A stretch of 4,114 bases of DNA from the IMG/VR virus record IMGVR_UViG_2695420650_000005; one strand, given 5' to 3'. The first letter of the stretch is position 1; the number at the start of each line of letters is the position of its first letter. A program made the translations under genes and the position numbers. This document shows positions 1,911 through 4,114 of this stretch, one piece after another. Source of the stretch: a virus (lineage: Duplodnaviria > Heunggongvirae > Uroviricota > Caudoviricetes). Under the pieces are notes generated by a model, which had not been told where the DNA came from, made no database searches, and saw nothing but the letters and a program-made list of their open reading frames with translations.

Positions 1911-1960
1911 ATACCTGAAAAACGGCACAGGACGTTAAACGTGCTGGTGGTCAGATGAGT

Positions 1961-1989
1961 TTGCAGATGTGATGACATATGGTTATTAT
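1961..1989 (+). promoter_or_regulatory. Candidate sigma70 promoter for the tRNA array
   Basis: TTGCAG (1961-1966), 17-bp spacer, TATTAT (1984-1989); predicted start about 1996, just before tRNA-Ile at 1999. Sequence match only. Confidence 0.3.
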
Positions 1990-1998
1990 TCTGCCTCC

Positions 1999-2075
1999 GG
2001 CCCTTTAGCTCAGTTGGTCAGAGCGAGCGACTCATAATCGCCAGGTCGCTGGTTCAAGTCCAGCAAGGGCCACCA
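1999..2075 (+). tRNA. ileZ: tRNA-Ile (anticodon CAT, predicted lysidine-modified, reads AUA); phage-type
   Basis: Cloverleaf folds: acceptor GGCCCTT/AAGGGCC, anticodon loop CTCATAA, T arm GCTGG-TTCAAGT-CCAGC, CCA at 2073-2075. Anticodon and T arms closely resemble E. coli ileX rather than elongator or initiator tRNA-Met. Symbol by analogy to Stx-phage ileZ. Confidence 0.75.
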
Positions 2076-2076
2076 A

Positions 2077-2153
2077 CCACCACTAGCTCATCCGGATAGA
2101 GCATCAACCTTCTAAGTTGACGGTGCGAGGTTCGAGTCCTCGGTGGTGGGCCA
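2077..2153 (+). tRNA. argN: tRNA-Arg (anticodon TCT, reads AGA); phage-type
   Basis: Acceptor CCACCAC/GTGGTGG (C1-G72), D stem GCTC/GAGC, anticodon loop CTTCTAA, T arm CGAGG-TTCGAGT-CCTCG, discriminator G, CCA at 2151-2153. Differs from my recalled host argU sequence. Symbol by analogy to Stx-phage argN and tentative. Confidence 0.8.
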
Positions 2154-2155
2154 GC

Positions 2156-2231
<76 letters not shown>

Positions 2232-2239
2232 TCAAGTCC

Positions 2240-2324
<85 letters not shown>

Positions 2325-2440
2325 ATTTCGGCCACGCGATGGCGTAGCCCGAGACGATAAGTTCGCTTACCGGCTCGAATAAAGAGAGCTTCTCTCGATA
2401 TTCAGTGCAGAATGAAAATCAGGTAGCCGAGTTCCAGGAT

Positions 2441-2515
<75 letters not shown>

Positions 2516-2521
2516 GTCAGA

Positions 2522-2567
2522 GTCTTTCAGTCTGCGATGATGGGAAATCCCGGAGTGACTGAAAGAC
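2522..2567 (+). repeat. Perfect 11-bp inverted repeat (stem-loop) inside the post-glyT insert
   Basis: GTCTTTCAGTC (2522-2532) pairs with GACTGAAAGAC (2557-2567); the 24-nt loop contains a nested GGG-AAAT-CCC mini-hairpin at 2542-2551. Begins 6 nt after the glyT CCA. Confidence 0.6.
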
Positions 2568-2622
2568 GTTTAAGTTATGAATGATCGCCTTTTTTTGCAA
2601 AATTGCTGTGCAGAAATACTAA

Positions 2623-2707
2623 NNNNNNNNNNNNNNNNNNNNNNNNNNNNNNNNNNNNNNNNNNNNNNNNNNNNNNNNNNNNNNNNNNNNNNNNNNNNNN
2701 NNNNNNN
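2623..2707. other. Run of 85 N (gap or masked sequence); content unknown
   Basis: Literal n characters. Nothing inside can be annotated; features spanning it are unresolved. Confidence 0.99.

Positions 2708-2752
<45 letters not shown>

Positions 2753-2912: not shown

Positions 2913-4114
<1,202 letters not shown>

Follow-up and report, generated by a model that had tools for sequence, protein, structure and literature searches.

The closest precedents for the element described here are 3'ETS-leuZ of the Escherichia coli (E. coli) chromosome and the stable RNAs of phage T4. 3'ETS-leuZ, the trailer of the glyW-cysT-leuZ operon and a sponge of small RNAs, starts after the last tRNA, ends at the operon terminator and is freed by tRNA 3' processing; it measures about 50 nucleotides (nt) and consists essentially of a seed and the terminator hairpin. 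It is among the Hfq-bound RNAs listed in PMC8550237. The T4 RNAs rnaD (species 2, 119 nt) and rnaC (species 1, 139 nt) are phage-encoded and structured, have tRNA-like 3' parts and directly trail the last tRNA of this virulent phage on the same strand. To our knowledge, their function is still not known. A further group of RNAs, comprising PasA/PasC, PasD/STnc100/EcOnc13, AsxR and StxS, occupies the pR' moron site, from Q to holin/lysozyme, in lambda-like prophages of pathogenic E. coli. The put antiterminator RNAs of phages HK022 and HK639 are structured and cis-encoded, form adjacent stem-loops just downstream of pL and pR, and suppress terminators. We compare with these systems an inverted repeat that lies immediately 3' of a tRNA-Gly gene in IMG/VR record IMGVR_UViG_2695420650_000005, a stretch of 4,114 nt of viral DNA (Duplodnaviria; Heunggongvirae; Uroviricota; Caudoviricetes) that is referred to, in its full length, as the window.

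Our analysis suggests, with a probability that we put at about 0.6, that this repeat is the 5'-terminal hairpin, D1, of a structured non-coding RNA of about 190-205 nt, which consists of the hairpin domains D1, D2 and D3 followed by an intrinsic terminator and forms the trailer of a tRNA operon. The carriers are lambda-like phages and prophages of E. coli and Shigella, in which the RNA is located between the Q antiterminator gene and the lysis genes. Its position, with the last tRNA on its 5' side, the operon terminator on its 3' side, one strand shared by all and no room for a promoter of its own, is that of a 3'ETS-type trailer. Compared with 3'ETS-leuZ, however, the trailer RNA is prophage-borne, is about 200 nt long, and contains three covarying hairpin domains and a kink-turn-like module. 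It resembles the T4 RNAs in its phage origin, structure and placement, but has no tRNA-like part. With the Pas, STnc100, AsxR and StxS RNAs it shares the genomic site, whereas these are unrelated to it in sequence and structure and none of them has been described as a tRNA trailer; PasA differs further in being antisense to phage late genes, and STnc100 is a separate match downstream of the trailer RNA in HK639. The put RNAs are, like the trailer RNA, structured RNAs of lambda-like phages, and HK639 carries a copy of the latter; the two are set apart by description, the trailer RNA lying in the late region, downstream of tRNAs, with a terminator that must work in lysogens.

The repeat search of the window gave the arms GTCTTTCAGTC (2522-2532) and GACTGAAAGAC (2557-2567), which are complementary at 11 of 11 positions and are separated by a 24-nt spacer containing the small hairpin UGGG-AAAU-CCCG. 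This confirmed the geometry given in the original prediction, a perfect 11-bp inverted repeat with a GGG-AAAT-CCC hairpin in its 24-nt loop, and the start 6 nt past the tRNA CCA was equally correct, ARAGORN placing tRNA-Gly(tcc) at 2441-2515. The same prediction had noted that the repeat has no T run and does not look like a terminator, in agreement with our data: GTTTAAGTT comes next, and the terminator scan is silent here. Folding had been proposed as a check, for 2516-2622; that of 2516-2570 gave -22.5 kcal/mol (z = -3.78), a stability that none of 200 dinucleotide shuffles reached, and intact relatives also fold as structured RNA. As for the claim that the repeat is unlikely to occur by chance, it is the sole perfect inverted repeat of at least 11 bp with a 3-40 nt spacer in the window, yet 2.45% of 2,000 dinucleotide-preserving shuffles of the window hold such a repeat; it is unusual, but on the window alone chance could still account for it. 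Because this frequency is not decisive, the reality of the hairpin was decided by conservation and covariation in homologues. On that evidence, which comprises 49 variants of D1, compensatory and G.U changes, a preference for the plus strand and a larger conserved fold, the structured RNA that the prediction had offered as one of two alternatives is well supported; the hairpin is real, and what had been covered was just the first third of the element.

The window has just D1 and the 5' half of D2 in legible form, while the 3' half of D2, D3 and the terminator fall under a run of N. In intact relatives, cited here by their L numbers, the sequence continues for about 130 nt up to an intrinsic terminator. 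The fold of L002:3001-3240 shows three hairpin domains and the terminator (-84.8 kcal/mol, z = -6.4). In D2, the stem ATGAATGATCGCC/GGCGATCATTCAT, of about 15 bp, surrounds UUUUUGCAAAAUUGCUGUG and a CC-NNNN-GG mini-hairpin; D3 is a stem GCACUCU/AGAGUGC around AUCCNNYUAACC...GGGUGGUUUGUUGGAU; and the terminator past D3 is GCCCGC-TTTT-GCGGGC with a T run behind it, the L002 hairpin (3208-3223) being followed by TTTTCTTTTC. Phage HK639, at 76-80% identity, has the same three-domain architecture when folded, and the incomplete copy in the window (2516-2741) scores 91 bits against our covariance model R1. Unpaired stretches in D2 and D3 whose sequence does not vary suggest a specific partner, RNA or protein.

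To collect homologues, viral contigs were scanned twice with motifs of D2 and D3, and local searches followed; together these yielded 84 distinct stretches, about 40 of them at 70-80% identity. For a plain MAFFT alignment of 30 sequences, RNAalifold returned the same three domains; 97.9% of its 1,707 cells are standard pairs, and pairing falls to 38-47% when the 3' partners are slid by 1-3 columns. The covariance model R1 retrieved 60 matches. In the R1-fitted alignment of 57 distinct sequences, which leans towards structure and includes some rows without D1, 97.2% of the cells pair and 27 pairs have changed on both sides, versus 11.6 +/- 1.7 after shuffling and 9-14 in slid registers. Every long helix shows compensatory changes. 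The 190-nt core folds at -70.8 kcal/mol on the plus strand and at -55.7 kcal/mol on the minus strand, and its helices are specific to the plus strand because their G.U pairs would become A.C mismatches on the opposite one. These results argue that selection acts at the RNA level, on the strand shared with the tRNAs and the late genes.

D1 was parsed by its loop motif in all 327 fetched loci, including those of one metagenome scan and one further viral scan with the D1 motif. The motif matches are bimodal: three, which are chance matches, have 1-4 outer pairs, and 49 distinct variants have 8-11. All pair counts of D1 come from this motif-anchored parsing, since MAFFT misplaced the apical-loop gap in the D1-only alignment. 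Among the 46 in-register variants, 97.4% of the 506 cells of the outer stem pair (500 column shuffles: mean 93.9%, maximum 95.7%), and the value drops to 34-56% in slid registers. Both sides have changed at four of the 11 outer pairs; pair 2 is UA in 8 variants and CG in 34, pair 3 is CG in 11 and UA in 34, pair 6 is UA in 26, UG in 15 and CG in 4, and pair 8 is AU in 21, GU in 16 and GC in 6. The inner stem shows one exchange of G-C for A-U. The search for covariation in homologues, which had been named beforehand as a check on the hairpin, was run in this way and found compensatory changes in the arms. One genome scan with a D1 motif (GCGATGATGGG...) was too narrow: its matches were confined to E. 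coli and Shigella, and the GAAGA variants of metagenomes escaped it.

The bulged U and the G.U closing pair of D1 are invariant, the C-G pair beside the internal loop occurs in 46 of the 49 variants, and the internal loop reads GA(U/A)GA opposite (G/U)A in all 49, with GA on the opposite side in 47. In the window, the layout is C2535-G2555, the bulge G2536 A2537 U2538, G2539.A2554, A2540.G2553, U2541.G2552 and three G-C pairs. This is the sequence pattern of a kink-turn, with a 3-nt bulge, tandem G.A/A.G and a Watson-Crick pair at -1; the consensus and the 3b.3n rule applied to D1 are those of PMC4382518 and PMC2790904. D1 matches the consensus in its C-G pair, 3-nt bulge (GAU or GAA), G.A and A.G pairs, 3b.3n (U.G or A.G) and short helix, and differs from the described motif in being known by sequence pattern alone. 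The nearest ribosomal example, Kt-7 (GGC-GAA-GA-A-CC / GG-G-GA-GCC), is nearly the same as D1 of L208, L252 and L268 (GC-GAA-GA-A-GGG / CCY-G-GA-GU). We know of no kink-turn described so far at the 3' flank of tRNA genes. According to PMC4382518, kink-turns with 3n = G fold in metal ions without protein; 3n is G in 43 of the 49 variants of D1, which by this rule is therefore predicted to undergo Mg-induced folding without a protein partner. The two variants with UA in place of GA are reminiscent of the Kt-23 exception (PMC2790904).

The position of D1 relative to the tRNA is nearly fixed, whereas the sequence behind it is not. The stem begins 6 nt past a CCA in 33 of the 49 variants, and 4-8 nt past it in 41; the preceding tRNA is usually tRNA-Gly, and is tRNA(CAT) in L197, L208 and L252. 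D2-D3 follows D1 in 28 variants and another module, D2', in eight, other sequences occupying this place in the remainder (still different ones in L268, L288, L303/L307 and L313). D2' stands directly after D1 and is an unrelated long hairpin, GCAUUCGCAUGAGC...GCUCAGCCGAAUG, with an intrinsic terminator; this type was not found in E. coli genomes or phage records, in which only the D1 part matches. These arrangements indicate that D1 is a portable module placed ahead of at least three different downstream RNAs.

Among 5,426 complete E. coli genomes, 536 contain the 107 nt from 2516 to 2622, at 581 places in all and never on a plasmid; 6 phage records have them as well. At every locus examined they directly follow a prophage tRNA-Gly(TCC), in the interval from Q to the holin/lysozyme genes. 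The normal order in prophages is tRNA-Thr, ATAT, tRNA-Gly and trailer RNA. A tRNA array precedes the RNA on the same strand at nine of the 11 loci scanned, the other two retaining a tRNA-Gly remnant. In the window, the CAT/Arg-TCT/Thr-TGT array is 100% identical to that of prophages of CFSAN029787 and other strains, and its tRNA-Thr has the phage-specific D-loop CAGCAGGCAGAGC. The promoter-like site ahead of the array (1960-1989) has an equivalent in L002, TTGCAA-17-TATTAT, also 9 nt before the first tRNA, and is a candidate promoter for the unit of tRNAs and trailer RNA.

This anatomy suggests how the RNA could be produced. The tRNAs and the trailer would be made as one transcript from the promoter-like site upstream of the array and, during lytic growth, also from pR' under Q. 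Host tRNA-processing enzymes would excise the tRNAs, and an endonuclease of the RNase E type would cut the 6-nt A/U-rich linker (2516-2521), parting the tRNA from the trailer RNA. D1 might restrict the accessible single strand to the linker and so confine the cut there; lying a few nt from the new 5'-monophosphate end, it might also shield the RNA of about 200 nt against 5'-end-dependent decay. The terminator would prevent constitutive transcription of the tRNAs from entering the holin gene. Because a promoter-like site stands before the array and a terminator past D3, the layout is that of promoter, gene and terminator, typical of prophage cargo. Co-transcription with the tRNA and release by its 3' processing, as put forward in the original prediction, are plausible, and we infer them from the promoter-like site, the 6-nt gap and the downstream terminator.

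Several points weigh against a trailer RNA that D1 opens and protects. D2 directly follows the CCA, with no D1, in L058, L106, L107, L154, L075 and L080; D1 lies several hundred nt from the nearest tRNA in L070, and about 380 nt apart from D2-D3 in L173. Because some relatives lack D1 or have it separated in this manner, D1 is dispensable for D2-D3. In the plain, unbiased alignment of 30 sequences, 8 pairs have changed on both sides against 7.9 in column shuffles, which is no excess, and much of the covariation divides two main clades, the E. coli type and the HK639 type, so that few independent events are involved. The kink-turn-like assignment is drawn from the pattern of bases described above, and co-transcription, linker cleavage and 5' protection are all read from anatomy. 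Simple 5' protection, moreover, needs no invariant kink-turn-like loop, and D1 probably does something more specific. Finally, L002 has a second promoter-like match, TCGGCA-16-TATAAT (10/12), at 2914-2941 within tRNA-Thr/tRNA-Gly, its TATAAT falling within the D-loop of tRNA-Gly; although this match is probably due to chance, it could provide an alternative 5' end inside tRNA-Gly.

A further specific interaction is suggested by the invariant kink-turn-like loop and by the equally invariant unpaired parts of D2 and D3. More than a mere processing boundary, D1 could be chiefly a recognition module, a kink-turn that brings in a host or phage protein or arranges an RNA-RNA contact, with the trailer RNA regulating in trans, for instance as a sponge of host small RNAs, a decoy of proteins or an anti-defence RNA. 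The internal loop, bulged U and G.U closing pair are invariant in 49 variants in which the stems and the apical loop vary; D1 is reused with different downstream modules; UUUUUGCAAAAUUGCUGUG and GGGUGGUUUGUUGG, in D2 and D3, are near-invariant, more so than pairing requires; and a chromosomal tRNA trailer, 3'ETS-leuZ, works as a small-RNA sponge. The interval from Q to holin is, in addition, known for prophage small RNAs with host targets (PMC4104026; PMC8550237; bioRxiv 10.64898/2026.05.13.724894). On the other hand, the apical loop of D1 is not conserved, which makes a loop-receptor contact unlikely. Nor do we know of any kink-turn protein of the L7Ae type in E. coli. The G at 3n in 43 of the 49 variants predicts folding that is independent of protein (PMC4382518), and we regard recognition as the chief role of D1 as unlikely, if worth keeping in view. 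Slightly better, still doubtful and offered tentatively, is a bolder proposal in which D1 would be a previously unrecognised portable kink-turn module, fixed 4-8 nt past the CCA of the last tRNA as a dedicated signal to a factor of host or phage origin governing how the tRNA 3' end matures or what becomes of the trailer, and D1-D2-D3 a new class of phage regulatory RNA, constitutive in about 10% of E. coli strains and directed at a host target, for instance a small RNA, a protein or a defence system.

The element is always upstream of the lysis cassette and on its strand, and relatives without D1 start the D2 stem 3-4 nt past the CCA, which again places a strong helix at the new 5' end; it could accordingly be imagined to act purely in cis, as an insulator and stabiliser through which the lysis/late mRNA would acquire a structured 5' end once the tRNAs are excised from the Q-antiterminated pR' transcript, no independent RNA product being of importance. 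We consider this improbable. In the loci read, of the E. coli type (L002, L212) and of the HK639 type, an intrinsic terminator of its own stands behind the element, the distance from the element to the lysis genes ranges from about 60 nt in L002 to about 500 nt in HK639, where further terminators and an STnc100-like RNA intervene, and the loop sequences of the element are conserved more than stability requires. Far less credit still goes to a palindrome acting at the DNA level, in recombination, integration or protein binding, as the boundary of an insert at glyT. The 3' end of a tRNA gene is a classic integration target, and the window has both a second 45-nt copy of the glyT 3' end and a mosaic of phage and chromosome. 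In normal prophages, however, the element lies inside, between Q and holin, and no integrase is encoded close by; the G.U pairs are A.C on the complement, the minus strand folding 15 kcal/mol worse; the arms change by compensatory substitution and present no fixed recognition sequence; and the mosaic junctions lie within shared tRNA sequence, away from the repeat. On these grounds neither a phage attachment site nor the recombination site that was the second alternative of the original prediction is supported, the element standing between Q and the lysis genes, far from integrase and att; the insert at chromosomal glyT proved wrong, the sequence from 2516 on being prophage and a standard part of the prophage tRNA module. 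Least credible of all is that the repeat is fortuitous, terminates the tRNA operon weakly or belongs to a small protein gene. Such a repeat does occur in 2.45% of shuffled windows, and an open reading frame from 2577 is annotated in ON470580 and ON470583; the pattern of conservation, with covariation across 49 variants, nevertheless refutes this reading, D1 is followed by GUUUAAGUU without a U run, is negative in the terminator scan and has the real terminator about 150 nt further on, and the reading frame suffers frameshifts, premature stops and ATG/TTG changes and does not overlap D1. A trailer RNA with D1 at its 5' end remains the reading that we prefer.

Known families did not account for the element. 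Searches of Rfam at the gathering threshold with the window, L002 and L003 (HK639) returned only tRNAs, plus STnc100 elsewhere in HK639, and at E values up to 10 nothing relevant overlapped L002 3001-3240. A text search of the literature for the conserved motifs found no papers, and keyword searches yielded only the Pas, EcOnc and StxS RNAs, which share the niche and are unrelated. Kinship with Pas/STnc100 was rejected, as the best score of R1 with filters off was 5.6 bits, in the PasD2-PasA locus of E2348/69; so was homology to T4 rnaC and rnaD, neither of which R1 matched, the best score in the T4 tRNA region, again with filters off, being 7 bits (E = 0.14). The open reading frame from 2577 was discarded as a gene: it ranges from 6 to 43 amino acids across variants, runs in three frames after indels and starts with ATG or TTG. 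A 38-amino-acid hypothetical protein over D2-D3 is annotated in two phage records (L001 3062-3178; ON470583), and this annotation is probably spurious. Weak matches of R1 to D3 only (model positions of about 118-187, 19-23 bits) were seen in the unrelated viral contigs L045, L052, L011, L197:5450-5637 and L285, which have TTGCAAAACCCGACACTTTATGCCATATTT in common; they may represent a different RNA with a similar GGGTGGTTTGTTGG element.

The coordinates of all features are compiled in Table 1.

Table 1. Features of the window and of the D1-D2' relatives. Positions are those of the window unless an L number is given.
Feature	Positions	Strand	Description
Prophage segment	1-2232		tRNA-Thr has the phage-specific D-loop, which identifies the phage side; its 3' part also occurs unchanged in chromosomal thrU
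Promoter-like site	1960..1989	+	TTTGCA-18-TATTAT, 9 nt before the first prophage tRNA; consensus match only
Prophage tRNA array	1999..2231	+	tRNA(CAT) 1999-2075, tRNA-Arg(TCT) 2077-2153, tRNA-Thr(TGT) 2156-2231
Chromosomal tyrU and 116-nt spacer	2233-2440		Where normal prophages hold only ATAT
glyT, tRNA-Gly(TCC)	2441..2515	+	Common to phage and chromosome; matches exactly both chromosomal glyT and the prophage tRNA-Gly usually found before the RNA
Prophage RNA	2516-2622		
Linker	2516..2521	+	GUCAGA, 6 nt, A/U-rich, single-stranded; GUYARA, GUUUAA and AAUAAU in relatives
D1	2522..2567	+	11-bp outer stem 2522-2532/2557-2567, bulged U2533, pairs G2534.U2556 and C2535-G2555
D1 internal loop	2536-2540 opposite 2553-2554		Asymmetric, GAU-GA opposite GA; kink-turn-like
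D1 inner stem	2541-2544/2549-2552		4 bp; apical loop variable
5' half of D2	2575..2622	+	5' arm UUAUGAAUGAUCGCC of a stem of about 13-15 bp, and near-invariant UUUUUGCAAAAUUGCUGUG
Run of 85 N	2623..2707		In intact relatives: rest of D2, D3 and intrinsic terminator (L002 3108-3232)
Second copy of glyT 3' end, then thrT and tufB	2708 onward		45 nt of glyT; chromosomal
D1-D2' trailer	L284 1009-1170; L233, L245, L289, L298, L299, L308, L316		Metagenome and viral contigs only

When aligned with a chromosome (L229) and a prophage (L213) of normal structure, the window proved to be a mosaic and no plain thrU-tyrU-glyT-thrT-tufB locus. All junctions fall inside sequence common to phage and chromosomal tRNA genes, and none at the repeat. 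The junction of tyrU, spacer, glyT and RNA was found at 0 places in the 5,426 complete E. coli genomes and in 0 viral contigs; it was likewise not among the 10 chromosomal places that encode an identical Q protein, nor in the E. coli/Shigella representative genomes matched by the D1 motif. The window is either a phage/chromosome mosaic generated by homologous recombination or gene conversion involving the Thr-Gly genes of the phage and thrU-tyrU-glyT, through which a prophage gained tyrU, or a mis-scaffold across repeats. Either origin leaves the reading of the hairpin unchanged, since glyT does not differ from the tRNA-Gly of the phage.

The first 2,232 nt of the window correspond to the late-regulatory region of a lambda-like prophage. 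Its open reading frames of 199, 96 and 184 amino acids (369-1809) match in length the DUF1367, YbcO/DUF1364 and DUF1133/Q-antiterminator genes of identical prophages; the 199-amino-acid DUF1367 gene stands at the NinB position, and the 184-amino-acid DUF1133 protein has a weak match to Phage_antitermQ. An identical Q protein occurs in 3,743 blocks of the assembly collection, often in genomes rich in insertion sequences (IS). Just past the Q gene, at the place of tR' and with the tRNA array downstream, there is a CCCGC-TTTAT-GCGGG hairpin followed by TTTTTTT (1887-1910), which is absent from the plus-strand listing of the terminator scan. ARAGORN calls the tRNA(CAT) of the array tRNA-Met, whereas RefSeq relatives have it annotated as tRNA-Ile (lysidine type); with Arg-TCT, it makes up the rare-codon set customary in lambda-like prophages.

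Some relatives show local variations around the trailer RNA. In the prophage closest to the window, that of CFSAN029787 (L212 2986-3056), the tRNA-Gly is degenerate, with the anticodon loop CCTTACAGG and an acceptor arm one base short, and is annotated as tRNA-Val; the trailer RNA behind it is intact. HK639 has just the 3' 44 nt of tRNA-Gly left ahead of D1 (L003 2944-2991), an STnc100 (RF02076) match at L003 3254-3459, about 70 nt downstream of the trailer-RNA terminator, and three further annotated terminators before the lysis genes. In the chromosomal prophage of CP104423 (L213 ~5230-5260), the sequence diverges right past D3 and IS3-family transposase genes replace holin, which suggests that an IS insertion or a deletion took away the terminator and the lysis genes.

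The trailer RNA is a tRNA-operon trailer and a phage-encoded structured RNA that has no match in Rfam and no description in the literature searched, and its portable, kink-turn-like D1 module is notable. The Q-to-lysis interval of the well-studied lambda-like prophages of E. coli carries cargo that changes the host, including Shiga toxin, tRNAs and small RNAs, and an RNA of about 200 nt with a structure backed by covariation and a kink-turn-like module, which roughly one in ten complete E. coli genomes carry and Rfam lacks, would extend that cargo. It would also represent a second and more accessible case of the puzzle posed by T4, namely stable structured RNAs behind phage tRNA clusters. The arrangement of a tRNA, a 6-nt linker and a hairpin would provide a simple system for testing how the structure of a trailer bears on tRNA 3' processing and on the survival of the RNA.

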